The notes: generated by a model not told the origin, from the letters alone. Shown: positions 2,080-22,067, numbered from the stretch's first letter. The stretch is 64,000 nucleotides of DNA from an uncultured Clostridia bacterium (GCA_964543295.1 CAZIXA010000002.1:46410-110409); one strand, 5' to 3'. Numbers and translations are program-made.

Positions 2080-4488
2080 ATGAGAAGAGTAAATTATAGG
2101 GTGTGGTGGTTTATCGTTGTGGGTTCACTCTTGTTTTGTTTGGTCACTCCTTTAGTCCAGGCCAAGACCCACCTGGAACTGGCTAATGAGTATGCTGTCA
2201 AAAGCGAGGAGTTTTTTAACGAAGCAGTTTCTGAATATAATTTGGCCCTGGATGAGCCCGGGGCCGATATAGATCAAATCCAATTTTTGTTGGGGAAGCT
2301 CTACTATGAGCATGGCAGGTTTGAGAAAGCTGTCGAGATCCTTTCTTCTCTTTATCCCCAAAAGAAAGATGATTTTCTTGTGGCCAAACTTCTGACTCTT
2401 TCTTATTATAAGACCGGAAATTACACCCGTGCCTTAGTCATCTTTGACAAAAATGAAAATTCGACTGACCAAGAATTTCTCTATTACTATGGACAAACCT
2501 GTGAAAAAAAGAGCCTTTTTGATAAGGCCGTTCGCGCCTATAGCCAGATTAAAGAGGGAAAATACTTATCTTTAGCCAAAAAGAGAATTCTTTTAATCAA
2601 TGCCGGGATGAAGTTGGCCACAGTCGATGATATTGGGGACCCTTATTTAAGGAATTTAATCAAGAGCTCACCCGGCTCGGCTGATTATCCCAATGCCGGA
2701 GCTATCGTTCTTTTAGACGATGAGTGGCTCGAGATTCTCTCAGACGGCACAGCCGTACAGACCACGCATTTTATGGTGAAGATATTGAATGAGCGAGGCA
2801 AACACTATGGGGAGGTAGAAATTAGCTACGATTCCACCTATGAGACTGTAGAAATTGAATACGCCCGAACCATCAAGCCTGATGGGAAAGTTTTTTCAGT
2901 GGGTGATAGACACATTCGTGATGTTTCCCGATACCTGGAGTATCCTTTGTATAGCAATGCTCGAGTGAGAATCGTCTCCATGCCCGAGGTGACCTGGGGA
3001 GCAGTCATTGAATATAAGGCGAAGAAGTATATTAATAAACTGGTCAATGGAGAAAATTTTTCTCTTCAATATGGAATTCAGGGGTACGAACCCTGTCTGA
3101 ATCGTAAGTTGAAGGTGTCGGTCCCTTCCGGGTATAAGCTCCACATAAAATCTTATAATCCAGGTTTTATTTCTTTTCCGGCTGATTTATCTCCCCGGGT
3201 CAGGGTACTGACAGATAGGACAGAGTATGAGTGGAGATTTAGTAATATTCCGGAGATTATTGAGGAGCCGAGCATGTCACCCTGGGTAGAGATTGTACCC
3301 AGTCTTTCCTTTTCTTCCTTCGATAGTTGGCAAATGGTTCATGATTGGTGGCAGAGTTTGGCTGAAGATAAGATGGAATTGGATGAGATAATTAAAGCCA
3401 AGGTTGAGGAGTTAATTCAAGATAAAGAAACGGCGGAAGAGAAAGCAGCTTCAATTTATCACTGGGTTGCCGAAAAAATCCGTTATATTGCGGTAGAATA
3501 TGGAGAAGCTGGCTTTGAGCCGCACGAGGCAAGTGAGGTATTCAAAAATAAGTACGGTGATTGTAAGGATCAGGCAGTTCTTTTAATTGGTATGCTAAGA
3601 TATGCCGGGATTCCAGCTTATCCGGTCTTGATCAGCACCCGGGGTAACTGGAGGTTGGATGATAACTTTCCTGCTTTGGTCTTTGATCATGCTATGGTTT
3701 TGGCCAAGGTTGGGGAAAGATCGGTCTTTCTTGATCCTACCGGGGAAACAGTTTCTTTTGGAGATCTTCCCCGGTCCGATCAAAACAGGAAAGTACTAAT
3801 TCTCGCGGAGGGAAAGGCAGAGATTGAGACTATACCTTTATTTTCTGCCGACCACAATAAATTTATTTTAAAGATGGATTTGAGGATAAGCGAGGACGAG
3901 ACAATTTGGGGAACCAGGCAAATTTTCACTTTTGGTGAATATGACCAGGGACAGAGGTGGTGGATAAAATATACCAAGCCAGCCCTGATCAAAGAACAAC
4001 TTAAGTCGGTCATTAATAATTTTTCGCCTGGGGTAGAGCTCCTGGATTATCACATAAGTAATGCAGAAGAGCTTGGTCAACCCATTGAGATCACGGTAGA
4101 GTTTAAAGGACCCAAGTTTTTAACCTCGTTGGGGGAGGAGAGGCTAATTCCTGTCCTAGGAGGAGTATCGGCCGATTTTGTTTCCCGGGAAAAGAGAAAC
4201 TATCCCCTCGATTTTGGGGTTTTGAGGGAATCAAGGACTCTCATCCAGATTAAACTCCCGGATAATCTTACTGTGAAATATCTTCCTCCTCCCATTATTA
4301 AGGATACCAGGTGGTTTACCTATATTAATAAATATACATTTTCCAACTCGACCGTTTCTTTTGAGGAACTGATGAGTGACAAAGTCACCAGGATCTCGGT
4401 TGACGAATATAGAGAGTATAAAGAGGCTTACGAACTACTAGCACGTCAGACTGATAAACAGGTGGTTTTAAGCAAAGTTACCCCGTAG
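2080..4488 (+). CDS. Secreted transglutaminase-like cysteine protease-fold protein with DUF3857-like and TPR-like N-terminal regions.
   Basis: An N-terminal signal peptide is present. The core YGDCKDQAVLLIGMLRYAGIPAYPVLIST matches the transglutaminase-like Cys core. Length is 802 aa. Confidence 0.65.
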   Translation: MRRVNYRVWWFIVVGSLLFCLVTPLVQAKTHLELANEYAVKSEEFFNEAVSEYNLALDEPGADIDQIQFLLGKLYYEHGRFEKAVEILSSLYPQKKDDFLVAKLLTLSYYKTGNYTRALVIFDKNENSTDQEFLYYYGQTCEKKSLFDKAVRAYSQIKEGKYLSLAKKRILLINAGMKLATVDDIGDPYLRNLIKSSPGSADYPNAGAIVLLDDEWLEILSDGTAVQTTHFMVKILNERGKHYGEVEISYDSTYETVEIEYARTIKPDGKVFSVGDRHIRDVSRYLEYPLYSNARVRIVSMPEVTWGAVIEYKAKKYINKLVNGENFSLQYGIQGYEPCLNRKLKVSVPSGYKLHIKSYNPGFISFPADLSPRVRVLTDRTEYEWRFSNIPEIIEEPSMSPWVEIVPSLSFSSFDSWQMVHDWWQSLAEDKMELDEIIKAKVEELIQDKETAEEKAASIYHWVAEKIRYIAVEYGEAGFEPHEASEVFKNKYGDCKDQAVLLIGMLRYAGIPAYPVLISTRGNWRLDDNFPALVFDHAMVLAKVGERSVFLDPTGETVSFGDLPRSDQNRKVLILAEGKAEIETIPLFSADHNKFILKMDLRISEDETIWGTRQIFTFGEYDQGQRWWIKYTKPALIKEQLKSVINNFSPGVELLDYHISNAEELGQPIEITVEFKGPKFLTSLGEERLIPVLGGVSADFVSREKRNYPLDFGVLRESRTLIQIKLPDNLTVKYLPPPIIKDTRWFTYINKYTFSNSTVSFEELMSDKVTRISVDEYREYKEAYELLARQTDKQVVLSKVTP

Positions 4489-4542: not shown

Positions 4543-4602
4543 TTTAAAGGAAAAAATTGGTGTACAGCCTCAAACTTTTTCCTGAGACTAAAGGAGTTGT
4601 CC

Positions 4603-5610
4603 TTGATATACAGCGACGGAGGGGAAGAGTCCCGAAATATACTTGAAGTCAAGAACCTGAAGACCTATTTTTACACGGATGAAGGAGTAGTTCGGGCTGT
4701 TGACGGTATAAGCTTCCACATAAAAAAGGGGGAGACCCTTGGTATGATAGGCGAATCAGGTTGTGGCAAGAGTGTAACTGCTCTTTCTATCATGCGACTC
4801 GTTCCTCAGCCGCCGGGACGGATAATCGGGGGCGAGATCTACTTCAAAGGTGAGAATCTCAGGGAGAAAAGCGAGCCTGAGATGCGGAGAATAAGAGGCA
4901 ATGAAATAGCCATGGTTTTTCAGGAACCAATGACCTCGCTTAATCCCTTATTTACCATCGGAGATCAGATAGCCGAGGCCATTATTCTTCATCAGAAAGT
5001 GGATAAACGAGAAGCCCAATATCGGGTGATAGAGGTGTTACAGAGAGTCGGTATGCCTGCTCCGGAGCGAAGAGCTCATCAATATCCTCACCAGTTGAGT
5101 GGAGGGATGCGTCAGAGGGCAATGATAGCTATGTCTTTATCCTGTAATCCTGATCTCTTGATTGCGGATGAGCCTACTACTGCTCTGGATGTAACTATTC
5201 AGGCTCAAATACTGGAGTTAATGGAGAGATTCAAAGATGCGTTGGGGATGGCTCTTCTTCTAATCACGCACAATCTGGGAGTCATAGCGGAAGTTTCGGA
5301 CAGAGTAGTTGTTGTCTATGCGGGAAAGACCGTGGAATATGCAGGTGCGCAGACGATCTTTAAGCATCCCAGACACCCTTATATGATGGGATTGCTCGAG
5401 TCGGTGCCCAGATTGGACGATGCCAGTAAAAAGTTAAAGATAATAAAAGGAGCCGTTCCTTTCGGCTTGAATTTGCCGAGGGGCTGTCGATTCCATCCTC
5501 GATGCGAAAAAGTTATGGACGTTTGCAAAGTCAAAGAGCCCCGAATTTTAAAAGTAGAAAAGAACCATTGGGTGCGATGCTGGCTCTGTGATTCAGAAGG
5601 AAAACTATAG
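4603..5610 (+). CDS. Oligopeptide/dipeptide ABC transporter ATP-binding protein (OppD/DppD type).
   Basis: Walker A GESGCGKS, signature LSGGMRQR, Walker [13 protein letters not shown], and the Opp C-terminal Cys-rich tail. The likely start is TTG 4603, placed 6 nt after AAGGAG. Confidence 0.85.
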
Positions 5611-5612
5611 AA

Positions 5613-6620
5613 ATGGTTAAAACAAATGGGAATCTCATGGAAGTGAAGAATCTCAAGAAATACTTTTCCCTGAGAGGAGGATTTCTGTCTCGAGCTACGG
5701 GGGAGATACGAGCGGTTGATGGAGTAAGTTTTTCTATTAGGCCAAAGGAAACCTTAGGATTGGTGGGTGAGAGTGGTTCGGGAAAAACTACCGTGGCCAG
5801 GGCAATCTTAAGACTCTCTTCTATAACTGATGGCCAGATTCTATTTAAAGGACGAAATATTTTTAAACTGGACAAAGAAGAACTCCGTAAGTTACGTCGG
5901 CGCCTTCAAATCATCTTTCAGGACCCTTATGCTTCCTTGAATCCCCGCATGAGTGTAGAAGAGATTGTGGGCGAGGGTATATTTATTCACAGGCTAGCCA
6001 AAGGGCCTGAGAAAAGAGAAAAGGTAGTACGATTGTTGGAGATAGTGGGGCTGTCAGCACATTACCTGAGGAGATACCCTCATGAATTAAGTGGGGGAGA
6101 GAGACAACGCATAGGAATAGCCAGGGCTCTAGCTGTTGATCCCCGGTTGATAGTTTGTGATGAGCCAGTATCGGCACTCGATGTTTCTATTCAAGCACAG
6201 GTCATAAACCTACTGGAGGATCTACAGCAAAGGTTTGGACTTTCTTATTTATTTATAGCTCATGACTTAAGCGTGGTAAGGCATATAGCCCATAGAGTGG
6301 CAGTAATGTATTTGGGTAAAATAGTAGAACTCGCCACCAAGGATGGTCTATATACATCACCTCAACATCCCTATACTGAGGCTTTGCTTTCCGCTGTGCC
6401 CATACCAGACCCCACGGTGGATCGACACCGAATAGTTCTCAAAGGTGAGATACCCAGTCCTGTAAATCCTCCCTCAGGCTGTTATTTTCATCCACGGTGC
6501 TGGTATGCAAAATCTGTCTGTAGAGAAAGAGCCCCTGAGTTGGTCGACTTGGGGGAAAGACATCTAGTTGCCTGTCATTTAAGACGGAAAAAAGTCAAGG
6601 AGGTAAAGACCGATGAATAA
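5613..6620 (+). CDS. Oligopeptide/dipeptide ABC transporter ATP-binding protein (OppF/DppF type).
   Basis: Walker A GESGSGKTT, signature LSGGERQR, Walker B CDEPVSALD, and a C-terminal oligopeptide-ABC tail. Confidence 0.85.
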   Translation: MVKTNGNLMEVKNLKKYFSLRGGFLSRATGEIRAVDGVSFSIRPKETLGLVGESGSGKTTVARAILRLSSITDGQILFKGRNIFKLDKEELRKLRRRLQIIFQDPYASLNPRMSVEEIVGEGIFIHRLAKGPEKREKVVRLLEIVGLSAHYLRRYPHELSGGERQRIGIARALAVDPRLIVCDEPVSALDVSIQAQVINLLEDLQQRFGLSYLFIAHDLSVVRHIAHRVAVMYLGKIVELATKDGLYTSPQHPYTEALLSAVPIPDPTVDRHRIVLKGEIPSPVNPPSGCYFHPRCWYAKSVCRERAPELVDLGERHLVACHLRRKKVKEVKTDE

Positions 6621-8520
6621 GTTTACAACTCTACTACTGGGAATTTGTGTTTTGTTTAGTTTATCTTTCCCTTCAGCGGCTGAGCTTACGAATCCCAAGG
6701 TTATGGAAGGAGAAGTGGGAAAGTATGGAGGTACCCTTGTCTGGTCTGTCTTTGGCAGCGGGCCCAAGACATTTAATTTTCCCATTGCTCAGGAGACTTC
6801 CTCTACCACTCCTTTAAGTTTCTTGTTTAGCGGATTAACCGAGACCAATGGGGTAACTACTGAGGTGGAACCTGCCCTGGCAGAGTCCTGGGAATTTAGT
6901 GAAGATGGGCTGGTCTGGACCTTTCACCTACGCAAGGGTGTTACCTGGTTCGATGGTGAGCCATTTACGGCAGATGATGTTGTCTTCACCTACAATAGCA
7001 TCATTTATAACAAGGATATTGCCTGCGGCATGCGGGATCTCTTAACCATTGAGGGAGAGAGAATAAAGGTAGAAAAAGTGGATGACTACACGGTAAGATT
7101 TACCTTGCCTGTTCCCTATGCACCTCTGCTAAGGCACTTAGGAACAGCCATTATGCCCAAACATATTCTCGAGCCAGCGGTGAAGAAAGGTACCTATATG
7201 ACCACCTGGGGAGTGGATACCCCACCTAACAAGCTCATTGGGACAGGACCTTTTATGATGACTCAATATGTTCCTGCGGATAGAATCATTTTTAAAAGAA
7301 ATCCTCATTACTGGAAGGTGGATAAAGAAGGTAATCAACTGCCTTATCTAGATGGTATGATTATGTTGATTGTCCCTTCCATAGACACTCAACTTCTCAA
7401 GTTCCAGGCAGGTGAGATTGACATCTACGGGATGAGAGGAGAAGATTATGCTGTCCTCAAACCCAAGGAAAAGGAAGGCAACTTCACCGTTACCAAAGGT
7501 GGACCAACATTTGGTTCTGAGTTTGTTATCTTAAACTGGAGCCATCCCGACCCGGTTAAATTCAAATGGTTTAACAATCCCCAGTTTAGAAAGGCCTTAG
7601 CTCACGCTATTGACAGGCAGACCTTTATTGATGACGTCATGTACGGATTTGGCGTACCTCAATGGAGTCCAGTCTCTCCCGCCGTGAAAGCCTTCTACAA
7701 TCCGGAGGTAAAGAAATATCCCTATGACCTGGCCAAGGCGAGAAAGATTTTACAGGAGGCTGGTTTTAGGTTGAAAACTGAGAAAGGCAAGCAATCTAGA
7801 ATGGGAAAAATTGGGCCTTGGTCAAGGTGGATAGTCTTTTCGATATCCATATTGGTGCTTTGCTTTCTTGGTGTATGGACGGCCATCAGAAGAAAATGGC
7901 GAATTATGATCATTTGGATTGTACTAATAGGTGTCATTGTCATAGGCAATTATTATGTTTCCCTGCCGCCGGCTGGACCAAAATATTTATATGACCCGGA
8001 GGGTCATAAGGTAGAGTTTGAGCTCTTCACCAATAGCGGTAATAGTGTCCGGGAGGCTCTGGGTACATTAGTGGCTGATGATCTTAAAAAATTAGGAATG
8101 AACGTTCATTTCCGACCCCTTGATTTCAATCTCTTAGTCCAAAAATTAACTTCCAAACCACAAGGTGACTGGGATGCCATCATCATTGGTTTGACTGGTG
8201 GAGTGGAGCCTCACGGCGGTGCTAATGTCTGGAAGTCTGATGGACAATTACATTCCTGGAATTATAATCCTGAAAATAGATATGACTGGGAACTAAAGGT
8301 AGATGATTTGTTCAATAAGGGTGTCCAGGAATTGGATCCCAAAAAGAGAAAACTAATCTATGATCAATGGCAAATGATTGTTTCTGAGAAGCTTCCCTTC
8401 CTTTATTCGGCCCTATCCACTTACCTTAGTGCGGCTAGAAACACTCTTAAAAATGCCCGTCCCACCGCCTACGGAGGTACCCTTTGGAATGTGGAGGTGC
8501 TTTATCTAGAAAAAGAATAA
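6613..8520 (+). CDS. ABC transporter substrate-binding protein, family 5 (OppA/DppA-like), with an atypical internal insertion of about 55 aa carrying two hydrophobic helices.
   Basis: A signal peptide and the family-5 SBP blocks (LPYLDGMIMLIV, YLYDPEGHKVEFELFTNSGN) are present. Residues around 390-445 (nt 7777-7980) are strongly hydrophobic, as expected for transmembrane segments. Confidence 0.75.
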   Translation: MNKFTTLLLGICVLFSLSFPSAAELTNPKVMEGEVGKYGGTLVWSVFGSGPKTFNFPIAQETSSTTPLSFLFSGLTETNGVTTEVEPALAESWEFSEDGLVWTFHLRKGVTWFDGEPFTADDVVFTYNSIIYNKDIACGMRDLLTIEGERIKVEKVDDYTVRFTLPVPYAPLLRHLGTAIMPKHILEPAVKKGTYMTTWGVDTPPNKLIGTGPFMMTQYVPADRIIFKRNPHYWKVDKEGNQLPYLDGMIMLIVPSIDTQLLKFQAGEIDIYGMRGEDYAVLKPKEKEGNFTVTKGGPTFGSEFVILNWSHPDPVKFKWFNNPQFRKALAHAIDRQTFIDDVMYGFGVPQWSPVSPAVKAFYNPEVKKYPYDLAKARKILQEAGFRLKTEKGKQSRMGKIGPWSRWIVFSISILVLCFLGVWTAIRRKWRIMIIWIVLIGVIVIGNYYVSLPPAGPKYLYDPEGHKVEFELFTNSGNSVREALGTLVADDLKKLGMNVHFRPLDFNLLVQKLTSKPQGDWDAIIIGLTGGVEPHGGANVWKSDGQLHSWNYNPENRYDWELKVDDLFNKGVQELDPKKRKLIYDQWQMIVSEKLPFLYSALSTYLSAARNTLKNARPTAYGGTLWNVEVLYLEKE

Positions 8521-8598: not shown

Positions 8599-9564
8599 TT
8601 GTTAACATATATTGTTCGACGATTTTTGCATATGTTTCCCCTAGTGATCGGGATATCGCTTATCTCCTTTTTCATCATCCAATTAGCTCCCGGGGATTTT
8701 TTAACTCAACAGGCTTTAAATCCTCAAGTTTCAACTCAGAGAATCGCTCAGGAAAGAGCTCGTTTCGGGTTAGATAAACCAGTCTACGTTCAATATTTTA
8801 TCTGGTTAAAGAACGCTCTGCGTCTTGACTTTGGGTATTCCTTTTCTTATCGAGTGCCTGTCTTTAGATTAATTGCCACCAGACTCTTTAATACTTTTAT
8901 CCTTTCCCTGAGCGCCATGATCTTTACCTGGGTACTCTCGATTCCCCTGGGGATAATTTCGGCAATTAAGCAGTATTCCTGGGTAGATAAGTTGCTCACC
9001 TTTGTGGCCTTTTTGGGTTTGGCTATTCCAAACTTCTTCTTCGCCCTACTCCTGTTGTTCATGGCCATGCGCACCGGTTGGTTTCCCGTGGGAGGAATGT
9101 ACAGTATCGACTTTCAGTCTCTGAGTTTATTTGGTAAAATCTGGGATCGTCTCTATCATTTGATCCTTCCCACCATAGTTCTGGGCACCTCAGGCATGGC
9201 CGGGTTGATGAGACAAATGCGAGGGAATCTCCTGGACTACCTTAAGGCTGATTTTGTGACTACTGCCCGGGCTAAAGGACTAAGTGAAAGAGTGGTTATC
9301 TGGAAACACGCAGTGCGTAATGCCATTAATCCCATCATTACTATTTTTGGTCTTTCTTTACCAGGTCTACTTTCCGGCGCTGCCCTCACCGAAATTGTCA
9401 TGGCCTGGCCAGGCCTGGGAAGGTTGATGCTGGAGGCAGTATTAGCCCAGGATCTTTATCTGGTAATGGGTAGTCTCATCATGGGGTCAGTTCTGCTTAT
9501 CCTTGGTAATCTGGTAGCTGATCTATTGCTTGCCTGGGTTGATCCCCGCATCCGCTATGATTGA
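8599..9564 (+). CDS. Oligopeptide ABC transporter permease (OppB/DppB type).
   Basis: Polytopic membrane protein with the N-terminal motif YIVRRF and the EAA-like loop. TTG start. Confidence 0.8.
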   Translation: MLTYIVRRFLHMFPLVIGISLISFFIIQLAPGDFLTQQALNPQVSTQRIAQERARFGLDKPVYVQYFIWLKNALRLDFGYSFSYRVPVFRLIATRLFNTFILSLSAMIFTWVLSIPLGIISAIKQYSWVDKLLTFVAFLGLAIPNFFFALLLLFMAMRTGWFPVGGMYSIDFQSLSLFGKIWDRLYHLILPTIVLGTSGMAGLMRQMRGNLLDYLKADFVTTARAKGLSERVVIWKHAVRNAINPIITIFGLSLPGLLSGAALTEIVMAWPGLGRLMLEAVLAQDLYLVMGSLIMGSVLLILGNLVADLLLAWVDPRIRYD

Positions 9565-9589: not shown

Positions 9590-10729
9590 ATGACAAGAAT
9601 ATTCATGCGCTGGAGAAAGAGTAATCTTCCGAAAACAAAATCGCTGACTCGAACTAAAATTATCTGGCGGGGACTTAGACGAAACCAATTAGGCCTAGTC
9701 GGGGGAATTGTTCTCATTGTTCTTTATCTGGGTGCACTTTTTGCCGATTTCGTTAGTCCATATTCTCCGGATCTCCAGGTCCGAAGTAAGAGCTACTATC
9801 CTCCCACCCCTATACACTTCATTGATGCTCAGGGCAGGTGGAGCTGGCGGCCCTTTGTCTATGAGTACAAACTAGTGGATAGAGCTTTTAAAATTTATAA
9901 GCCTGATACCAGCGTGAAGCATCCCTTCCGTTTCCTGGTGAGGGGAACAGAGTACAAGTTTCTGGGTTTAATTCCTTCTCAAATCCATCTCTTTGGGACT
10001 GATAAGCCTGGTTATATCTTTCTTTTAGGGACAGATAAATTTGGACGGGATCTCCTTTCCCGACTTCTTTTTGGAGCTCGTATCTCTCTTTCAGTAGGAT
10101 TGGTTGGCATCCTGGTTTCCTTTAGTCTGGGAGCATTGGTGGGAGGAATATCAGGGTACTATGGTGGTGCGGTGGACAATGTTTTGATGAGATTCTGTGA
10201 AATGATTATGTCTTTCCCGGGATTTTACTTGCTTCTGGCTCTCCGGGCTGTACTTCCCACTAATCTATCTTCAACTCAGGTCTATCTTTTAATTGTACTC
10301 ATATTAAGCTTCATTGGCTGGCCCGGATTTGCTCGAGTGATTCGAGGTATGTTTCTTTCTTTCAGAGAGCAGGAGTTTAGCCTGGCAGCTAAGGCTTTAG
10401 GGAGCACCGATCTTCGTATTATTTTAAGACATATCTTACCTAACACTATGAGCTTTATCGTTGTAGCGGCTACTCTCAGCGTACCAGGTTATATCCTGGG
10501 AGAAAGTGCTTTGAGTTTTTTGGGGTTGGGGATTCAGGAACCGCAGGCCAGTTGGGGCAATATGCTAGCTGCAGCTATGAACACCCGAGTTTTAGTCAGT
10601 TTCCCCTGGATTTTAGCTCCTGGCCTTTTCATTTTTATATCTATTCTCGCTTTCAACTTTCTGGGAGATGCTCTGCGTGATGCCCTGGAACCCAGGATGC
10701 GAACCAGTAGACAAACTTTTACTGGCTAG
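9590..10729 (+). CDS. Oligopeptide ABC transporter permease (OppC/DppC type) with an extended N-terminus.
   Basis: Polytopic membrane protein of OppC-type topology with an N-terminal extension typical of OppC. Confidence 0.8.
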   Translation: MTRIFMRWRKSNLPKTKSLTRTKIIWRGLRRNQLGLVGGIVLIVLYLGALFADFVSPYSPDLQVRSKSYYPPTPIHFIDAQGRWSWRPFVYEYKLVDRAFKIYKPDTSVKHPFRFLVRGTEYKFLGLIPSQIHLFGTDKPGYIFLLGTDKFGRDLLSRLLFGARISLSVGLVGILVSFSLGALVGGISGYYGGAVDNVLMRFCEMIMSFPGFYLLLALRAVLPTNLSSTQVYLLIVLILSFIGWPGFARVIRGMFLSFREQEFSLAAKALGSTDLRIILRHILPNTMSFIVVAATLSVPGYILGESALSFLGLGIQEPQASWGNMLAAAMNTRVLVSFPWILAPGLFIFISILAFNFLGDALRDALEPRMRTSRQTFTG

Positions 10730-10853: not shown

Positions 10854-13484
10854 ATGAGAAAAAGACGGATTCATTGGCTGGCAATTTTGGGATTATTAGT
10901 GGGTCTGAGTGTGGTTTTCTTGCCTTTCTTTGCTGGCCCCCAAGCGGCAACTATTTCGGAAAGTTATCCTCAGCCTCAAAGATACGTCCTGGACAATGGA
11001 ATGACAGTCATTCTGGAGGAAATTCATACTGCTCCTGTAGTGGCCTGGCAGGCTTGGGTGAAAGCTGGAAGCATCACTGAAGGTGAGTACTCAGGCTCAG
11101 GGGTATCTCATTATATTGAACACATGCTATTTAAGGGAACCAAAAAAAGAGGAGTGGGAGAAATTGATCGGGAGATAAGAGGCCTGGGAGGAACCATTAA
11201 TGCTTATACCTCCTTCGATCGTACTGTTTACCATCTGGTGGTTCCCAGTGAGCATTTTGTCACCGCTCTTGATATTCTGGCTGATGCAGTAATGAATTCA
11301 GCTTTTAACCCGGAGGAATTAAAGAAGGAAAGAGAAGTGATACTTCGGGAAATTGATATGGGCAAGGATGATCCTGATCGCTTCTTAGGTCGTTTTTTCT
11401 GGTCTACTGTCTACCACGAGCATCCCTATCGCTATCCGGTTATTGGATACCGAACTCTATTTGAACGATTAACAAGGGAAGATCTCTTAGCCTATTACCA
11501 TAGAATGTACCGCCCTAATAATATGATACTGGTAGGAGTGGGAGATTTTGATTCTCAAGTAGCTCTTGCCCAAATTAAAGAGGCTTTTACCGACTTTAAG
11601 CGAGGATCGCTGCCACCAGTTTACATTCCAGCTGAACCTCGTCAATTGGTGCCAAGGAGAGTGGAAAAAGAATTTGAAGTTAAACAAATTTACCTACTCA
11701 TGGGTTTTCATACAGTAAGTATTCAGAATAAAGATATGTACCCCCTGGATGTTCTGGCTATCATTTTGGGGCAAGGGCGAAGTTCCCGATTGTTTAGAAA
11801 AATTAGAGAAGAAAAGGGACTGGTAAACGCCGTATCTGCCTGGTCCTATACTCCCAGGGATGCTGGTATCTTTGGTATAAGAGCTACTCTGAATGAGGCA
11901 AATAAAAACCGTGCTATTGAGGAAATCTTAAAAGAACTGGACCAATTCAAAGTGGAGCTGGTGAGTGAAGAGGAGCTAGAGAAGGCCAAAAGAAAGGTGG
12001 TAAGTGAGCACATATTCTCCCAGGAGACTATGGAAGATAGGGCCACAGATCTGGCTTCCAATGAGCTGGTGGTTGGAGATGTTAATTTTTCTGAAAACTA
12101 CGTCAAACAAATCCAGAAGGTGAACCGGGAAGAGATTAGACGGGTGGCTAATAAATATTTTCGTCGGAATAATCTTACCATAACTCTTCTCAAGCCAGCT
12201 GTGGAAAAGGCAGCCACCAAGCCAAAGATTTCTGTAAAAAAACCACCGCTCATCAATAAATATGAGATGCCCAATGGCATGAATCTTCTGGTGCGCGAAA
12301 ATCATACCTTACCCACTGTTTTCATGCAGGTCGTATTTAAGGGAGGGCTGAGGTTCGAAAATCAAGACAATAATGGGATATGTAATTTTGTACGAAGTAT
12401 GCTCTTGAAAGGGACTAAGACTAAGTCTGCTCGCCAGATAGCTGATGAAATAGAGTCGCTTGGTGGAGCTATCGATACCTACGGAGGAAATAACAGTTTC
12501 GGCTGCTCGGTTAGCGTATTAAAGGAAGACTTTGATACCGGACTTGATATCCTGGCCGATGTCATTATGAACTCGAGCTTCCCTTCCGGGGAAATAGAGC
12601 GGGAAAGAAGAATCATCTTAGCTCAGATCAAAGCTCAAGAAGATGATATTTTTAATGCTGCCTTTAAACTGTTCAAAGAAACCTTATTTACCCGCCATCC
12701 CTTTAAATTTCAAAGTATCGGCACGGCCCAGAGTATAGCTAAGCTCACCAGAGCCGATTTAATTAAATATTATGATGAATTCTGTAGACCTAACAATATG
12801 GTCCTCGCTGTTTATGGAGATGTAAAGGCATCCGAGGTGGCAAAGAAAGTAGAGCAGGCCTTTGCTGACTTTAAAGCTCAGCCACTGCCTTTGATTCAGA
12901 TTCCCCAGGAGCTAAAACCAACCCAGGTGAGGGTGGCCACCGAGTATATGGAGAAAAAACAGGCTGTGATTATGATAGGGTTTCAGGGCATTAATGTTAA
13001 AAGTGAGGATAGATACACCTTTGAGGTTATGACCTCTATCCTTTCCGGCGGAGGTTCCCGCCTTTACCAGAGCCTTAGAGAACGGCTGGGCCTTGCCTAT
13101 AATATAGGAAGTTTTTCCTTTATAGGACTGGAGGATCCCGGTGCTTACATCTTTTACATAGCTACAGCTCCGGAAAAGATAGAGACAGCTAGAGATGGGC
13201 TTTTGGAAGAGATAAAAAAGCTGATAACGAATGAGGTATCAGAAGAGGAGCTCAATCGAGCTAAGAAAGATTTAATTGGCACCGAGACCATTCGTCTGGA
13301 GACTAACCAGGCTTTGGCTCTTCAGTCTGCCCTGGATGAGCTATACGGATTGGGCTACGAGAATTTTAAACGATATGCTTCCGATATTAATCAAGTTACT
13401 CAAGAGGATATTAAAAAGGTGGCGGCTAAGTATTTTGATCTCGGTAGCTATACGATAGTGGTTGTGGGACCGAAAGAGCACTAA
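10854..13484 (+). CDS. M16-family zinc metallopeptidase (pitrilysin-like), a single chain with two tandem M16 units, secreted.
   Basis: The inverzincin motif HYIEHMLFKG (HxxEH), a duplicated M16 architecture (876 aa), a signal peptide, and AAGGAGG immediately upstream. Confidence 0.85.
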   Translation: MRKRRIHWLAILGLLVGLSVVFLPFFAGPQAATISESYPQPQRYVLDNGMTVILEEIHTAPVVAWQAWVKAGSITEGEYSGSGVSHYIEHMLFKGTKKRGVGEIDREIRGLGGTINAYTSFDRTVYHLVVPSEHFVTALDILADAVMNSAFNPEELKKEREVILREIDMGKDDPDRFLGRFFWSTVYHEHPYRYPVIGYRTLFERLTREDLLAYYHRMYRPNNMILVGVGDFDSQVALAQIKEAFTDFKRGSLPPVYIPAEPRQLVPRRVEKEFEVKQIYLLMGFHTVSIQNKDMYPLDVLAIILGQGRSSRLFRKIREEKGLVNAVSAWSYTPRDAGIFGIRATLNEANKNRAIEEILKELDQFKVELVSEEELEKAKRKVVSEHIFSQETMEDRATDLASNELVVGDVNFSENYVKQIQKVNREEIRRVANKYFRRNNLTITLLKPAVEKAATKPKISVKKPPLINKYEMPNGMNLLVRENHTLPTVFMQVVFKGGLRFENQDNNGICNFVRSMLLKGTKTKSARQIADEIESLGGAIDTYGGNNSFGCSVSVLKEDFDTGLDILADVIMNSSFPSGEIERERRIILAQIKAQEDDIFNAAFKLFKETLFTRHPFKFQSIGTAQSIAKLTRADLIKYYDEFCRPNNMVLAVYGDVKASEVAKKVEQAFADFKAQPLPLIQIPQELKPTQVRVATEYMEKKQAVIMIGFQGINVKSEDRYTFEVMTSILSGGGSRLYQSLRERLGLAYNIGSFSFIGLEDPGAYIFYIATAPEKIETARDGLLEEIKKLITNEVSEEELNRAKKDLIGTETIRLETNQALALQSALDELYGLGYENFKRYASDINQVTQEDIKKVAAKYFDLGSYTIVVVGPKEH

Positions 13485-13526: not shown

Positions 13527-14573
13527 TTATTTTTCTATATGGATTGTTCTGGTGGGGAAGGGAATCTTTATTCCTTTAGATTGCAGTTCCTCATAAGCCA
13601 GAGAGACAAACTTATCTCGAATATCGAATCTTTGCCTAAAATCGGTAATCCAGAAAACTACTCTAAAATTAAGGGAGAAGTCGGCCATTTCCATAAAATA
13701 AACCCGGGGAGGAGGGTCCTCCTGGATTCTCCCTATCTTTTTGATACAATCCATAAGGACTTGCCTGGTTTTTTTTATGTCTGAGCCATAAGCTACCCCT
13801 ATCCTTACCACCATCTTCAAGTTAGCTAAGGGACGGCCATAATTGGTGATTTTACTTGTTACTAGGCTATTGTTAGGAATGATGATCTCATTTCCTTCCT
13901 CGAATGATTTTATCCGGGTCGACCTTAAGCCTATGTCGATAATTTCTCCCACTTCCCCACTTTCTAGTTTGATAAAATCACCTATTCTAAAGGATTGGTC
14001 AGCAATGAGGGCTATTCCTCCAAAGATGTTGGCGAAGATATCACGCAGAGCAAAGCCGAAGACAAACCCGGCAATACCTAGACTGGCCACCAGAGCCGTT
14101 ACTCTAACATCCCAGAGAGTTAAGATAAAGATAATGAGGAGGCCGAATATAATAAAATTCAAAATTTTTCGGCTAAGAATTATTAATTCTCGTCCTTTGA
14201 CCTTACCCGTGACCCTGCTTCTTTGGGTAAACCAGCCTTTAATTAATACATTAATAAAAGAGCTAGCCAGGTAACAGGAGATGGCTATGACTATGGAAAG
14301 TACTATCCGGGAGAAAATTACTCTGGTCTGAGTAGATAAAGGAAGAAAGTTAAAGGCGGTGGTAATTCCAGCCAGGATGATAAGATAGAAGATGGGAGCT
14401 TTTACTTTAGAGAGAATGATGTCGTCAAGTTGGGTGGTTGTTTTCTTGACTAATCTACCAACCAGGTGAGTTAAAATAAGATAGATGACTTTTGCTCCCA
14501 GGTAAAAAAAGGCAAAAGCCAGGATTGCTTTTAGATAGGGACTAATCGCAAGTTTCTCCAGCGATTCTATCAT
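13527..14573 (-). CDS. Mechanosensitive ion channel, MscS family.
   Basis: Three N-terminal transmembrane helices followed by the MscS beta-domain signature (IGDFIKLESGEVGEIIDIGLRSTRIKSFEGNEIIIPNNSL). Confidence 0.8.
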   Translation of the reverse strand: MIESLEKLAISPYLKAILAFAFFYLGAKVIYLILTHLVGRLVKKTTTQLDDIILSKVKAPIFYLIILAGITTAFNFLPLSTQTRVIFSRIVLSIVIAISCYLASSFINVLIKGWFTQRSRVTGKVKGRELIILSRKILNFIIFGLLIIFILTLWDVRVTALVASLGIAGFVFGFALRDIFANIFGGIALIADQSFRIGDFIKLESGEVGEIIDIGLRSTRIKSFEEGNEIIIPNNSLVTSKITNYGRPLANLKMVVRIGVAYGSDIKKTRQVLMDCIKKIGRIQEDPPPRVYFMEMADFSLNFRVVFWITDFRQRFDIRDKFVSLAYEELQSKGIKIPFPTRTIHIEK

Positions 14574-16214: not shown

Positions 16215-17516
16215 ATGTCTCTAAATACGAGGAGGAAAAAAATGAAGAGGTCAAATGTTTTTCCCAAAACAATAACATCTTTAGTAATTGCTTTCTCTTT
16301 GATATCTGTAGGTCTCACTTCGGTTCTTTCTGCAAAGGTGACCCATATTAAATTTGCTGAGTGGAATGCCTTAAAGGACCCATATAATTATGTGAAAGCT
16401 TTTGAAAAGGCAAATCCGGATATTAAAGTCGATTTTACCTTAATTCCTGAAGCAGAATATTCTCAGAAAATTAATACTATGGCAATAACTGGTAATGCTC
16501 CAGATGTTATGGTATTATGGGAATGTGATATAACTAGATTGGCTAAAGCCGGGCTTGTTATCCCACTGGATGAGCATGTAAAACAAACTAAAACTTTCAG
16601 CATGGATGATTTTATTCCCGCTGTTGGTAATTTAATTAAGTCACAAGGTAAAATATACGGATTTCCTTGGTGTTTTGCTACAGAAATATTGTATTACAAC
16701 AAAGATGTGTTTGACAAAGCTGGTTTAGCATATCCGGATGAGAAGTGGACATGGAAGGATTTTGAAAACGCTGCTAAAAAGCTAACTATAGTAAAAGATG
16801 GTAAGGTTGTTCAATGGGGTTGCGATTCTCTTAATTTCCAGGGACTATGGTACTCTCTAATTGGCACAGCAGGCGATGAAATTGTAAATGAAAAAGGTCA
16901 ATTCTCTATAGGAAATGGTGCAAAGGAATTTTTACAATGGTGGTATAACTTGACAAATAAAGATAAGGTAGTTCCATCTCCACAGACTGCAGTAGGTGGG
17001 GTGACATCAGATTTATTCATGGCTGGAAAGGCAGCCATGGCATTCAATGGCAGTTGGATGACCTCAGTTTATAAAGATATAAAAGACTTCGGGTGGGATA
17101 TTGCTCCAATACCGAAAGAAAAGAGACAGTACTCTACACTTCATACAGGATTCTTTACTATCTATGTTAAGAGTAAGGTTAAAGATGCAGCATGGAGATT
17201 TATTGAATTCTGTATGAGCGGTGAAGGGCAGGAAGTAATAAATAAGGCTGGAAATAATCCTTCAGCACGTATATCAATACTTAAGAAGGGTTATTATAAA
17301 GTATATGGCCCTAAAGGTCCAACTCGTTGGGATGCAATTGAAAAGACGGCACAATTTGCTCAGTGGGGATATGTATTACTTCCTCCAGGATTGAGTTTTG
17401 ATGTTGTTAAAGACTTCCATGCGGTAATATTAGGACAAATGAGTATAGATGATGCTCTAAAGCGTGCAATGGATAGAGGAAAGGAAATTTTAGGAGAGAA
17501 AGGAGTTGCTGAATAG
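16215..17516 (+). CDS. Sugar ABC transporter substrate-binding protein (family 1, MalE/AraN-like).
   Basis: A signal/lipobox-like N-terminus, family-1 SBP blocks, and two MalFG-type permease genes downstream. Confidence 0.8.
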   Translation: MSLNTRRKKMKRSNVFPKTITSLVIAFSLISVGLTSVLSAKVTHIKFAEWNALKDPYNYVKAFEKANPDIKVDFTLIPEAEYSQKINTMAITGNAPDVMVLWECDITRLAKAGLVIPLDEHVKQTKTFSMDDFIPAVGNLIKSQGKIYGFPWCFATEILYYNKDVFDKAGLAYPDEKWTWKDFENAAKKLTIVKDGKVVQWGCDSLNFQGLWYSLIGTAGDEIVNEKGQFSIGNGAKEFLQWWYNLTNKDKVVPSPQTAVGGVTSDLFMAGKAAMAFNGSWMTSVYKDIKDFGWDIAPIPKEKRQYSTLHTGFFTIYVKSKVKDAAWRFIEFCMSGEGQEVINKAGNNPSARISILKKGYYKVYGPKGPTRWDAIEKTAQFAQWGYVLLPPGLSFDVVKDFHAVILGQMSIDDALKRAMDRGKEILGEKGVAE

Positions 17517-17633
17517 AGTCAGTCTTATATAAGGGGAAACTGCCACTCCCCCTTTTTAGCGATGGATAGTGTTTGTAGCACCTCACTATTTTCAGTGAGG
17601 TGCTACAATTTTTAGAAAATATTTTAAGATTAT

Positions 17634-18536
17634 ATGAAGAGCAGAATAATGAATCACAAAAAAGGGTCAATCGTTCCCTATATATATTTATCTCCATGGA
17701 TAATAGGATTCGTCTTATTTTCCGGAGGACCTATTATTGCTGCTATACTAATAGGTTTTACCAAATGGGAGCTGATAAGTAACCCTACCTGGGTTGGTCT
17801 TTCTAATTTTGTTAGGATGTTTAGAGTAAGTTCTGAATTTTGGGGTATACTTAGGGTTACTCTTATTTTTACTTTATTTTCTGTGATTGTAACTGTAGGA
17901 TGGGCTCTTTTCTTAGCTTTACTTCTAAATCAAAAGACCCGTGGTACAGGTATATTCAGTTTTTTCTATTTTATTCCAGCAGTTGTACCATTGGTAGCGT
18001 TGACTTTTGTATTCCAGCTAATTTTTAATAAAGAACTTGGAGTTGCAAATTATCTCCTTTATCTAATTGGTATTCATAATGGCCCAAACTGGCTAATGGA
18101 TAGTAGGTGGGTCTTGTGGACTATTATATTCATTTGTATCTATATGTATTCAACAGGACAGATGATGTTGATTTTTGACGGAGCTTTAAAGGATGTGTCT
18201 AAGGAACTATATGAAGCTGCGGAAATTGATGGTGCAAATAGTATAGATAAATTTTTTAAAATTACTCTTCCTGCCATTTCGCCAATTCTATTTTTTAATT
18301 TAGTTATAGCTACAATAGGTTCACTGAACCTGTCATTTACGCTGATATACCCATTAACAGGCGGAGGCCCAGGAAAACTTACTCAGGTGATAAGTTTAGA
18401 CATTTATAACAATGCCTTTAAAAACTTTAGAATGGGATATGCTTGTGCTGAGGCTATTGTACTATTTATTATTGTTGCAATAATATCATTGGTACAATTT
18501 AGACTTTCCCGAAAATGGGTATATTATGAAGTGTAG
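17634..18536 (+). CDS. Sugar ABC transporter permease (MalF/AraP-like).
   Basis: Six transmembrane helices and the EAA motif region (EAAEIDGANSIDKFFKITLP). Confidence 0.8.
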   Translation: MKSRIMNHKKGSIVPYIYLSPWIIGFVLFSGGPIIAAILIGFTKWELISNPTWVGLSNFVRMFRVSSEFWGILRVTLIFTLFSVIVTVGWALFLALLLNQKTRGTGIFSFFYFIPAVVPLVALTFVFQLIFNKELGVANYLLYLIGIHNGPNWLMDSRWVLWTIIFICIYMYSTGQMMLIFDGALKDVSKELYEAAEIDGANSIDKFFKITLPAISPILFFNLVIATIGSLNLSFTLIYPLTGGGPGKLTQVISLDIYNNAFKNFRMGYACAEAIVLFIIVAIISLVQFRLSRKWVYYEV

Positions 18537-18578
18537 TTATTACTTAAGTACAAATTGGCTATTTTTTAGAAAGAGGAA

Positions 18579-19421
18579 ATGTGGAGAATGGAAATGAGTA
18601 ACAAAACAATAAAATTTTTACGATATTTTATAGCGGCATTAGTAGCTATTATTATGTTCTTTCCTATTCTCTGGATTATCTCGTCATCTTTTAAACCTCT
18701 TATAGAGTTTAGTTCCTATCCTCCCTTTCTTATTCCTCGCCACTTTTATCCTGAGAATTTTATTGAATTATTGTCCCAAAGTAAAGTATTAACATATTTA
18801 AAAAACACCGTAATTTTGATTGTGGGAAGCACTGTAGGAACTTTAATATCTAGCTCTATAGTTGCTTATCCTCTTGCACGAATGAACTTTAGAGGTAGAA
18901 ATCTAATTTTTGGAATGATTTTGGCAACTATGATGGTACCGAGTGCAGTTACAATTGTTCCTCAATATATTCTCTTTAACCGATTGGGATGGCTTGATAC
19001 ATTTTTACCAATAATTGTGCCTGCTTTTTTTGCTTATCCCTTTAATGTATTTCTTTTTAGACAATATTATAGAACAATTCCTAAGGATTTAGATGAAGCC
19101 GCTAAACTTGATGGATGCAACAGTTGGCAAATATTTTTAAAGATAATTGTTCCTCTATCTAAACCAATCTTTATAGCGATTGGAGTGCTATCTTCTATAT
19201 ATTGGTGGAATGAATTTTTTATCCCTCTAATTTTTATAAATTCAGAGGACTTAAAACCATTGAGCGTAGGTCTATATAGTGTTTCCAGAACTTTCTTTAT
19301 AACAAGGTGGAATCTTCTGATGGCAATGTCTACAGTAATGATAATCCCACCGATAATTTTATATTTATTTTCCCGTAGATATATAGCTGAAGGAATAAAA
19401 ACTTCAGGGATAAAGCAATAG
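18579..19421 (+). CDS. Sugar ABC transporter permease (MalG/AraQ-like).
   Basis: Six transmembrane helices and the EAA motif (EAAKLDGCNSWQIFLKIIVP). Confidence 0.8.
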   Translation: MWRMEMSNKTIKFLRYFIAALVAIIMFFPILWIISSSFKPLIEFSSYPPFLIPRHFYPENFIELLSQSKVLTYLKNTVILIVGSTVGTLISSSIVAYPLARMNFRGRNLIFGMILATMMVPSAVTIVPQYILFNRLGWLDTFLPIIVPAFFAYPFNVFLFRQYYRTIPKDLDEAAKLDGCNSWQIFLKIIVPLSKPIFIAIGVLSSIYWWNEFFIPLIFINSEDLKPLSVGLYSVSRTFFITRWNLLMAMSTVMIIPPIILYLFSRRYIAEGIKTSGIKQ

Positions 19422-19676
19422 TTAACCTAAAAAGGCATAAAAATAGGCTATGAAGGATCTTTAAGAAAGGTCGTAGATCCAATATATTAGGTATTTATTC
19501 CATTAGGGTGAGCATGAATGTCAGTCCTTAAAAATGAGGGAGTTATTGATAGTGGTCATTATTCCAGATTCCAGTTATTCTCGCTTTCTTCTTTGCCCAA
19601 AGGTATTTTGTAGAGCGAATAACCGTAACCGGGGTGGAAGGTTAAGGTTTTCACAATCAAAGTTGGAGGAGTTATC

Positions 19677-21641
19677 ATGCCAATTAGATGTTTAGAATTC
19701 CAAAGAATTTCCTGGAAGGATAGGGGAGTTGTATCCACAACGAACAGTTCTTTTTGTAAATTGAAACCTATTCCCATCAGAGCTGTACAGATGAGGGCAG
19801 GATTTTGGAAATCTCGAATGGACACGCTTGCGACAGTTATTCTAAAAAAGCAGATGCAAGAGATTCGAAAAAGTGGTGTCCTTGATAACTTTATGCGTGT
19901 TTACGGCAAATCAGATGCAGAGTTTAGGGGGTTTTACTTTGTGGACTCAGATATCTACAAATGGATAGAGGCTGCCTCCTGGGCCCTTCAGACCCAAGAT
20001 CTGCCCGAAATTGAAAAAATGATCAACGAGGCCATTGATATTATCGAGCCGGCTCAAGGTGACGATGGCTATCTTAATACTTACTTTCAAAAGGAAAGAG
20101 CTGGGAAACGTTGGACAGATTTGGAGCATATGCATGAGCTATACTGTGCCGGTCACCTGTTTCAAGCAGCCATTGCTCATCACCGTTCTACCGGCAGTGA
20201 TCGACTGCTCAATATCGCTTGCAAATATGCGGATTACATTTGTGAGGTATTTGGACCTGGGAAAAAGGAAACCCACCCGGGCCATCCAGAGATTGAGATG
20301 GGATTGATTGAACTATATCGGGAAACAGGACTAAAACGCTATCTTAATATGGCAGGTTTTTTCATCGACCACATTGGGGGCAAGGATATGCGGGAACTCC
20401 TGGGACACGCTGTACGAGCGTTATATTTCTGTTGTGGAATGACTGACTACTATGTAGAGACGGGAGACCGAGCCTATCCGAAGGCATTGGAGAGTTTATG
20501 GAAGAGTATGACAGAGACCAAGATGTACGTGACTGGAGCTGTGGGTGGTCGGGTCCACACCGAGTCCTTTGGTCGAGAATTTGAACTGCCAAACGAAAAC
20601 TGTTATGCAGAAACCTGTGCAGCCATTGCCTCAGCGTTCTGGAACTGGCGGATGCTTACCATTAATGGAGAGGCTCGTTTTGCGGATCTCGTGGAATTAA
20701 CATTGTATAACAGCATTTTCTCAGGTATCTCACTTGATGGGGAAAAATACTTTTACGTCAATCCTCATGCCAGTAGCGGTAGGTCTACGGGAGATCCATG
20801 GTACTCCTTTGATAGATCTAGTGCATCTACCCGCCAAACTTGGTTCAAATGTGCATGCTGTCCGCCGAACCTTGCACGAATATTTGCCAGTCTGTCTGGA
20901 TATTTCTATTCAACCAGTAATGAGGGTATCTGGATTCACCTCTATGACAACAATACCGTCAACTGGCGTCTACCAGACGGAACGAAGTTTGTTCTTTCTC
21001 AAAGGACTAACTATCCCTGGGATGGCAAGATTGAAATTGAGATATTCCCGGAGAAAGAAAAAGAATTCAGCCTTTTCCTTCGTATCCCGGGGTGGTGTCG
21101 AAAAGCTTCTATCATGGTGAATGATGAGTTGATATCCGGTGCCATCCAAGCTGGCAGCTATTATGAGATTAAGAGAACCTGGAGGAAGAAAAGCAAGGTC
21201 GTCCTGGATATGGCGATGCCCCCAGTTTTGATGATCTCTAATCCTATGGTGGCTGAGAATCGTTGCAGTGTTGCGCTGAAGCGCGGTCCGATTATCTATT
21301 GTTTTGAAGGAGTAGATAACCCAGGCATATTTGTCCGACAAGCTAGATTAAAGGTAGATTCTGAAAACCCTGGGAAGAACCTTAAAACCGAATTTCGTCC
21401 TGATCTACTCGGGGGTGTTATGGTAATAAGAGGGGAAGGAATGATTCCTGTGGAGAATTGGGGTCCTCTATACAGACCTTTCGAGACAAATCCCGTCAAA
21501 ACTAAACCAGTGGTTCTAAAAACAATCCCTTACTATGCTTGGGATAACCGCGGTGTCTCCGAGATGAGTATATGGATACAAATGGACAAAACTAAACTTT
21601 TATCAGAAAATGTAAAAACTAGTATAGCGTTTTCTAAATAA
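19677..21641 (+). CDS. Glycoside hydrolase family 127 (DUF1680) beta-L-arabinofuranosidase (HypBA1-like).
   Basis: The GH127 architecture and the Cys-rich zinc/catalytic motif FKCACCPPN. GGAGGAG lies upstream of ATG 19677. Confidence 0.8.
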   Translation: MPIRCLEFQRISWKDRGVVSTTNSSFCKLKPIPIRAVQMRAGFWKSRMDTLATVILKKQMQEIRKSGVLDNFMRVYGKSDAEFRGFYFVDSDIYKWIEAASWALQTQDLPEIEKMINEAIDIIEPAQGDDGYLNTYFQKERAGKRWTDLEHMHELYCAGHLFQAAIAHHRSTGSDRLLNIACKYADYICEVFGPGKKETHPGHPEIEMGLIELYRETGLKRYLNMAGFFIDHIGGKDMRELLGHAVRALYFCCGMTDYYVETGDRAYPKALESLWKSMTETKMYVTGAVGGRVHTESFGREFELPNENCYAETCAAIASAFWNWRMLTINGEARFADLVELTLYNSIFSGISLDGEKYFYVNPHASSGRSTGDPWYSFDRSSASTRQTWFKCACCPPNLARIFASLSGYFYSTSNEGIWIHLYDNNTVNWRLPDGTKFVLSQRTNYPWDGKIEIEIFPEKEKEFSLFLRIPGWCRKASIMVNDELISGAIQAGSYYEIKRTWRKKSKVVLDMAMPPVLMISNPMVAENRCSVALKRGPIIYCFEGVDNPGIFVRQARLKVDSENPGKNLKTEFRPDLLGGVMVIRGEGMIPVENWGPLYRPFETNPVKTKPVVLKTIPYYAWDNRGVSEMSIWIQMDKTKLLSENVKTSIAFSK

Positions 21642-21801
21642 CGTTACAACAATTTGTCATTGTGAGTGATAGCGAAACAATCTTAAAATCTTACCAACTG
21701 AGGGATTGCTTTGTCGCTTTGCTCCCTGGAATGACAGGATAAAATGTAAAGTTAATTGGGAAACGAACTACTAGATTAAAAAATCGATATCTTCAAGGCA
21801 T

Positions 21802-21977
21802 AGGAATTTCAATAATTTCTCTGAATCGTTATGAAGTAAACCTCGGCAGACGAGATATCAGAAAAAAGAGGGGAGCAGGCTCGACTTGCTCGAGCGAAGC
21901 GAGAGTCGGCTTCGCCGATCGAGCCATCGAGGGGGGAATTCTGAAGGAATCGGCGAAGCCCTATTTCCCCCCTCGAG
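21802..21977 (+). repeat. Structured repeat element of about 175-190 nt, copy 1 (promoter-like 5' part followed by nested GC-rich stems). The second copy is at 58802-58975.
   Basis: About 95% identity to 58802-58975. Internal inverted repeats: GCTTCGCCGAT/ATCGGCGAAGC and TCGAGGGGGGAA/TTCCCCCCTCGA. Confidence 0.7.
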
Positions 21978-22067
21978 TATCTTGTTCCAAAAGTAGAGAC
22001 ACGACTTATGGAGGGGAATATAGGTTAAGATTTGAAAAAGTACTGATAAAATGAGGGGTTTGTAATA

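Follow-up and report, generated by a model that had tools for sequence, protein, structure and literature searches.

Introduction

The solute-binding proteins (SBPs) of ATP-binding cassette (ABC) transporters are known in four arrangements, being fused to the transmembrane (TM) domain, held by a lipid anchor, attached through a separate TM helix, or free (PMC3971661). This report deals with an SBP of the family-5 / cluster C (OppA/DppA-like) kind, 635 aa long and encoded at 6613..8520 (+ strand) of a 64,000-nucleotide stretch of DNA deposited under the name of an uncultured Clostridia bacterium (GCA_964543295.1, CAZIXA010000002.1:46410-110409; hereafter, the window). The chain of this protein is interrupted, in frame, by a segment with two hydrophobic stretches. 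The segment, first noticed in a first-pass annotation of the window, is present as described and the observation is real; it is probably an internal TM-hairpin anchor of an SBP that has no lipobox, occurring as one allele at one locus of Candidatus Aerophobetes. Membrane-tethered SBPs are a known kind, but an anchor made of an internal hairpin is previously undescribed, and when the literature was searched for solute-binding proteins with a transmembrane hairpin, none was found.

The lipoprotein-anchored SBPs of cluster C, including DppA of Mycobacterium tuberculosis (Mtb) and many OppA/AppA proteins of Gram-positive bacteria, share with the window protein the fold, the transporter type and the holding of the SBP beside the translocator. 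However, they are attached by an N-terminal triacylated Cys that follows a lipobox, whereas the protein considered here has no lipobox and a presumed hairpin within its C-lobe. Tethering is needed for a stable complex in the lipoprotein-anchored DppABCD system of Mtb; when DppA is without its lipid anchor, stable assembly is lost and ATPase activity is lower (PMC10954201). Judging from that precedent, tethering may matter for cluster C SBPs. Those SBPs of archaea and some Gram-positive bacteria that end in a TM helix (PMC3971661) likewise have a proteinaceous anchor on a separate SBP polypeptide, but there is one helix and it is terminal, whereas the two predicted helices of the window protein lie mid-chain and both lobes would therefore be exported on either side of the anchor. 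In binding domains of the OpuA and GlnPQ type, membrane attachment is likewise by TM segments of the same chain; however, these segments belong to a fused permease, whereas the hairpin has no similarity to BPD_transp_1 and the permeases are separate genes. The closest solved structures are those of AppA (1xoc), a lipoprotein, and Escherichia coli DppA (1dpp, and 8z1y/8z1z in complex), which is freely periplasmic; both are ~25 % identical to the window SBP and both lack the insert.

The insert and its place in the protein

The 635-aa open reading frame (ORF) matches Pfam family SBP_bac_5 (PF00496) with an E value of 7.6e-90 and 302 bits against a cut-off of 32.4, and no other Pfam family is found in it. 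The match is broken by the insert into two stretches. Orthologs retrieved by database search are either 634-635 aa (81-86 % identical) or 567-568 aa long (up to 91-93 % identical). In protein and codon alignments, the difference is a single clean indel with a net gain of 67 codons (201 nt). Insert-less proteins read ...EAGF-I-LK-EGK-LYD..., whereas insert-bearing ones read ...EAGF-R/T-LK-T/A-EKGK...GPKY-LYD..., and, since the alignment of the left junction is ambiguous by ~3 codons, the insert is best given as aa 389-458 (7777..7986, +) replacing a three-residue E-G-K turn. The segment is in frame, as stated in the first-pass annotation, but the length of about 55 aa and the right boundary of 7980 given there give way to the net 67 codons of the ortholog alignment and to 7986. 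Its spacing of about 10 residues between the flanks was roughly right; six residues lie between EAGF and LYD in insert-less orthologs, and six also in Bacillus subtilis AppA (1xoc).

Within the insert, a variable N-side linker, presumed periplasmic, with low predicted local distance difference test (pLDDT) values (EKGKQSRMGKIGPWSR; 7780..7827, +) leads into predicted TM helix 1, W406-I425 (7828..7887, +), which would run from outside to inside. It is followed by a basic loop, RRKWR (7888..7902, +), that is near-invariant in all copies and predicted to be cytoplasmic, and then by predicted TM helix 2, I431-V449 (7903..7959, +), which would run back out. A Pro-rich C-side linker, SLPPAGPKY (7960..7986, +), leads into the SBP strand KYLY. 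Hydropathy thus agrees with the earlier account of two hydrophobic stretches of ~20 aa around RRKWR. The maxima of the 19-residue Kyte-Doolittle mean are 2.54 for W406-I425 and 2.43 for I431-V449, and simple additive sums on the Hessa scale are -2.4 and -0.9 kcal/mol. Among the 121 homologs retrieved, a comparable internal hydrophobic window occurs in insert-bearing orthologs only, and the hydrophobicity of the insert is therefore far beyond chance.

An AlphaFold2 (AF2) model of the 635-aa SBP, made with a 103-sequence alignment, has a pLDDT of 89.6 and a predicted template-modelling score of 0.81, values of more than 90 being reached in both flanks of the insert; a 19-sequence alignment had given a pLDDT of 52.9. 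In Foldseek comparisons, the model superposes on AppA 1xoc (E 3e-45) and on DppA within the DppABCDF complex (8z1z_F), with a target-normalised TM-score of 0.85 in both cases, as well as on NikA and others, and the SBP fold is thus predicted to be intact despite the insert. Helices are modelled at 402-426 and 429-450 with pLDDT of 65-78; strands 386-389 and 457-460 form a stalk that carries the insert, and linker 390-401 is of low confidence. The site corresponds to the six-residue turn 346-351 of AppA, which follows the helix ending ...AEAGW, and in the model the insert is borne by the C-lobe, where it sits at the tip of a beta-hairpin on the surface. The comparison with OppA/DppA-type structures that had been proposed as a check on surface-loop placement comes out in favour of such placement. 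Papers on E. coli DppABCDF and Mtb DppABCD do not describe, at the level of single residues, the loop in which the insert lies.

Translation and constraint

The frame of the SBP (+1) is the only one free of stop codons across the segment in 11 of 11 copies, the other five frames being stopped in every copy. Antisense and alternative ORFs at 7722..7949 (-) and 7818..7994 (+) were considered and set aside, both having stop codons in every copy. The sole length variant has a 3-nt in-frame insertion. Over a 45-codon core, variable sites number 8, 6 and 17 at first, second and third codon positions, respectively, and VWTAIRRKWRIMIIWIVLI is near-invariant among host genes with DNA differences of up to 20-24 %. 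Because only the SBP frame is open, changes are mainly at third positions and the hydrophobic pattern is kept, the insert is translated and under purifying selection. The length variant (L013, 3001-3216) also has a divergent C-side linker, IISLAGPKY in place of IRPVGPKY, and it follows that the periplasmic linkers tolerate change whereas the helices do not. Another earlier suggestion, that the segment is a recently inserted mini-gene, drew on an ATG preceded by AAAGG. Both motifs exist (7801-7803 and 7783-7787, respectively), but they are not conserved, with a Pro codon at the position of the ATG in most orthologs. With no stop or separate ORF, an unconserved ATG and the other frames closed in 11 copies, the mini-gene is not supported.

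Predicted topology and proposed anchoring

The window protein begins with a Sec-type signal peptide, MNKFTTLLLGICVLFSLSFPSAA, followed by E (6613..6684, +), in which a scan for the lipobox pattern [LVI][ASTVI][GAS]C at the signal peptide end found no match and which has no twin arginine; the presumed cleavage site is placed by small residues at -3/-1 (A-x-A type). The proteins of this clade (P0001-P0022) contain no lipobox, and Cys12, within LGIC, comes too early and after Ile to constitute one. More distant relatives (~50 % identity) often have a lipobox. Other known modes of attachment are also missing from the window protein. Its hydrophobic segments lie at aa 406-425 and 431-449 of 635 and its C-terminus is hydrophilic, so that there is no terminal TM helix, and no BPD_transp_1 domain occurs in the SBP polypeptide as it would in a fusion of binding domain and permease. 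What is found instead is the predicted make-up of a generic helical-hairpin anchor, i.e. two ~20-residue hydrophobic segments, a short basic loop and an even number of spans. By the positive-inside rule, a basic connecting loop is cytoplasmic and, with an even span number, both SBP halves would therefore be periplasmic.

Insertion into the membrane, an out-in-out topology and tethering as the function are what the sequence suggests. The N-terminal signal peptide would start export of the first ~390 residues, helix 1 would stop transfer, the RRKWR loop would stay in the cytoplasm, and helix 2 would restart export for the last ~180 residues. From the two periplasmic parts an ordinary SBP would form, attached to the cytoplasmic membrane by its own hairpin through linkers of ~16 and 9 residues. 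Thus, the hairpin would replace a lipid anchor, a terminal TM helix or a permease fusion and would keep the SBP beside OppBCDF. Among the three readings first proposed (a membrane tether, a recent mini-gene and an assembly chimera), the tether is the best supported, given an insert that is translated and constrained, conforms to the positive-inside rule, sits at a surface site and belongs to a protein without a lipobox, although tethering itself is an inference.

Distribution and history

The insert occurs at the identical site of the same syntenic locus in at least 12 contigs, including ones from JGI (L003, L009-L011, L014), Logan (L004, L007) and NCBI metagenomes and metagenome-assembled genomes (MAGs) (L008, L012, L013, L015). 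Counted over 90 %-identity clusters, there are ~63 insert-bearing database proteins and ~37 insert-less ones, and the search for homologs with the same insertion has thereby been answered in the affirmative. Named genomes belong to Candidatus Aerophobetes, one having the insert (L015) and the single-cell genome of Ca. Aerophobus profundus (L017) being without it. The sources of insert-bearing and insert-less sequences are marine-sediment and subsurface metagenomes, and public names go no further than 'hypothetical protein', 'solute-binding protein family 5' and the like. In NCBI, some members of the Aerophobetes-type SBP clusters P0137, P0157 and P0169 go under the names 'Firmicutes/Bacillota bacterium' or 'Patescibacteria group bacterium', which probably reflects errors of MAG binning or taxonomy. 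The two forms share one gene neighbourhood, and they are therefore alleles of one locus rather than paralogs. The first-pass annotation had held that orthologs lacking the segment would speak against it, and on this the outcome is mixed, with some close orthologs lacking and others having the insert. An assembly or sequencing artefact with a chimeric junction, which had nothing in its favour but the odd architecture, is practically out of the question; the insert is present in independent assemblies from NCBI, JGI, ENA and Logan, and its sequences co-diverge.

Trees of SBP, OppB and OppC contain three clades, A (the window and L001), B (L007, L004, L005 and others) and C (L003, L006 and others), and each of the three includes both insert states. 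On an SBP tree built without the insert and junction columns, parsimony requires eight changes of state (7-9 in bootstraps), against a mean of 9.9 (range 7-13) for random relabelling, and the state of the insert thus has almost no phylogenetic signal. In contrast, a tree of the insert alone falls into the same clades A, B and C, indicating that the insert is old and diverged with its hosts rather than spreading recently, and the notion of a recent insertion is given up accordingly. The distance between clades B and C is 12-14 % in the insert vs 22 % in the gene; stronger constraint on the insert would account for this, and so would a degree of exchange at a later time. At the junction, insert-less alleles read ATT TTR AAA GAA GGT AAA, a sequence that resembles the outgroups and that no single deletion in the filled allele would yield. 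They therefore go back to the ancestral form and not to repeated excision.

Residues associated with insert state are confined to the junction (386, 389 and 390), and in 30-codon windows the divergence between allele classes equals that within classes as far as the junction itself. A balanced polymorphism with tight linkage was entertained and dropped, since it would have left a peak of divergence between the allele classes near the junction, and none was seen. Insert-bearing L007 and insert-less L005 are 97.1 % identical in DNA, with 35 of their 57 differences falling within ~70 codons of the site, a clustering such as a recombination tract leaves. Taken together, near-random states and an insert tree that follows the clades suggest an old two-allele polymorphism shuffled by homologous recombination. 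The pattern points to a long-standing presence/absence polymorphism that recombination has unlinked from its flanks, and it would entail long-term maintenance of both alleles; i.e. the insert-less, outgroup-like allele would have persisted in all three sampled clades.

State appears to track sample rather than lineage, with a rough chance probability of ~0.03 that was calculated post hoc. Three insert-less loci (L019, L021 and L022) come from one sample (JGI 3300035158) and two clades, two insert-bearing loci (L010 and L014) from sister samples (Ga0307430/Ga0307429) and again two clades, and three insert-bearing ES703 proteins (in the clusters of P0004, P0005 and P0008) from different lineages within one subsurface metagenome.

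Alternative explanations

A tolerated passenger, i.e. a chance in-frame insertion into a permissive surface loop that has no function and has simply not been lost, is an unlikely account. The loop does vary in length within the family, and insert-less alleles are common and outgroup-like. However, in three clades and over DNA divergence of up to 20 %, the insert has kept both its frame and its hydrophobicity, with its third-position excess of changes and near-invariant core. Within clade B and between clades B and C it has changed more slowly than the gene around it, the insert-bearing form is in the majority, and a hydrophobic hairpin of 40 residues would hardly be neutral in a protein that is exported. 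A docking module, in which the hairpin packs on the TM helices of OppB/OppC so that the translocator gains the SBP as a permanent subunit, is improbable to a similar degree. RRKWR and the flanking Trp are conserved beyond the needs of a generic anchor, and the second TM helix of DppB (TMH2) recognises the anchor region in Mtb DppABCD (PMC10954201). Against docking, an association of four OppC columns with the insert, perfect when five insert-less loci were compared, was lost with four more (best value then 0.857), and the same OppB/OppC sequences serve both alleles. In this larger set of insert-less loci, no residue of OppB or OppC co-varies with the presence of the insert, which also speaks for a passenger and tells against an anchor as well. 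Very improbable, finally, is the cleavage of helix 2 as an internal signal peptide (A-I-A followed by I-G in clades B and C), splitting the SBP into two chains; RRKWR, the hydrophobic core and AIA do resemble the n-, h- and c-regions in sequences of those clades, but the window copy has V-I-V there, which we judge ill-suited to signal peptidase, the motif is part of the predicted helix, and there is no precedent.

The near-random distribution of states on the gene tree and the loss of linkage beyond ~6 codons might also be produced by a mobile in-frame element, whether like a Rickettsia palindromic element (RPE) or a miniature inverted-repeat transposable element (MITE), or of a homing or cassette type, that inserts and excises precisely at the site. 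We consider this quite improbable, as the insert was found at a single locus only. In a scan of metagenomes, 6 of 6 among the matches listed were this SBP gene; in a scan of species-representative genomes with a pattern derived from the insert, only the SBP locus was hit, the sole insert-bearing match being this gene. No second copy was found in the 64-kb window by blastn or tblastn, and none was found in viral contigs. An exhaustive phmmer search with the insert against 1.84 billion representatives, in a library that holds one representative per 50 % cluster and represents the insert's own cluster by an insert-less protein, gave one match (P0121, E 9.8e-4), taken as noise because its Pfam matches are incoherent fragments. 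A word-index search with the insert peptide alone gave no candidates, but it was uninformative, having missed an identical protein too. No terminal inverted or direct repeats flank the insert, there being neither terminal inverted repeats (TIRs) nor a target-site duplication (TSD). RNA folding is no better than that of shuffled sequences (z +0.97), and the insert is not palindromic. Rickettsia palindromic elements are likewise short in-frame surface insertions with a patchy occurrence among relatives; however, they are multi-copy, palindromic and spread over many genes, whereas the insert was found at one locus, its RNA is unstructured, and its tree agrees with the host clades. An RPE/MITE-like repeat was rejected on these grounds, i.e. 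the single locus, the lack of TIR/TSD and the fold. Nor is the insert-less junction what precise excision of the filled one in a single deletion would leave.

Other origins have been tried and discarded. Inteins are at least ~130 aa, begin with Cys/Ser and end in His-Asn followed by Cys/Ser/Thr; the insert, at 67-70 aa, starts T/A-E-K and ends G-P-K-Y before Leu. Nor is the insert a remnant of an insertion sequence, which like an intein had been named at the outset as a possible refutation. Rfam gave no match at E<=1 in 7500-8300 and none at gathering score in the whole window, and a self-splicing intron or known RNA element was rejected for want of an Rfam match and of significant structure. 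An origin of the insert from a duplicated part of the SBP gene or of its signal peptide was also rejected, local alignments being no better than shuffles, apart from one marginal value (0.01) for the window copy that the other copies did not share; nor did the window yield a source for the insert.

An internal TM-hairpin anchor accordingly stays the preferred explanation, but several observations weigh against it. The other SBP of the window (SBP_bac_1) is also without a lipobox, and the organism may accordingly be a diderm whose SBPs are normally free in the periplasm, with tethering optional. Optional tethering would fit the coexistence of both alleles, but it leaves the selective advantage unexplained, and the insert-less alleles are evidently functional as well. 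With the C-side linker limited to ~9 residues, a hairpin tip on the wrong side would hinder docking. Lastly, contigs assembled from metagenomes can be mixtures of strains, and the unlinking within clades may for that reason look greater than it is; the occurrence of both states in clades 13-22 % apart could not arise in this way.

Operon and other genes of the window

The insert-bearing SBP gene belongs to an operon of the Opp/Dpp type, with genes for an OppD-like ABC ATPase (4597..5610, +; Pfam ABC_tran and oligo_HPY), an OppF-like ABC ATPase (5613..6620, +), the SBP, an OppB-like permease (8599..9564, +; BPD_transp_1 and BPD_transp_1_N) and an OppC-like permease (9590..10729, +; OppC_N and BPD_transp_1). 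The start codon of the SBP gene overlaps the 3' end of the oppF-like gene at 6613-6620. The usual order of such genes is oppABCDF; here it is oppD-oppF-SBP-oppB-oppC, and this order is conserved across all related loci. By Pfam match, fold and operon, the protein qualifies as a cluster C SBP, binding of a peptide or other ligand and its delivery to the translocator being the expectation for the family. Upstream of the operon lies a gene for a TPR/DUF3857/transglutaminase-like protein (2080-4488) and downstream one for a double M16 (insulinase-type) peptidase (10854..13484, +), assigned by Pfam and, for the peptidase, synteny as well. Both are syntenic in insert-bearing and insert-less loci and, with the operon, suggest a unit for peptide uptake and degradation.

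Downstream of the M16 peptidase gene, the window has a gene for an MscS-type mechanosensitive channel (13527-14573, -), the position of which is taken by an iron-containing alcohol dehydrogenase (Fe-ADH) gene in L001, L003 and L006, a local break in synteny. A sugar ABC system with the SBP_bac_1 protein lacking a lipobox (16215-23540) adjoins genes for a GH127 beta-L-arabinofuranosidase and an alpha-L-arabinofuranosidase, consistent with a saccharolytic lifestyle. Two further ORFs, 31237-33645 (+; 802 aa) and 47145-49685 (+; 846 aa), have no Pfam match at E<=1e-6.

Implications

If the hairpin is indeed an anchor, it would constitute a fifth arrangement of SBPs, beside the free form, the lipid anchor, the terminal TM helix and the permease fusion. 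It would also mean that a periplasmic fold of two lobes can be exported one half at a time, with a membrane hairpin in between, which would be useful for protein engineering and for the study of Sec topogenesis. A bolder proposition, which we put forward tentatively and think doubtful, is that this is the first SBP with an internal TM-hairpin anchor and that tethered and free alleles have been co-maintained by selection, possibly in connection with habitat, throughout the diversification of the Aerophobetes group while moving by homologous recombination. Because near-identical alleles exist (L007/L005, 97 %), the effect of tethering on transport is directly testable with natural sequences. The presence of both alleles in three clades raises the question of what maintains them in slow-growing sediment bacteria and, if the hairpin does tether, the locus would amount to a natural experiment on whether SBP tethering pays off in an energy-starved subsurface organism.

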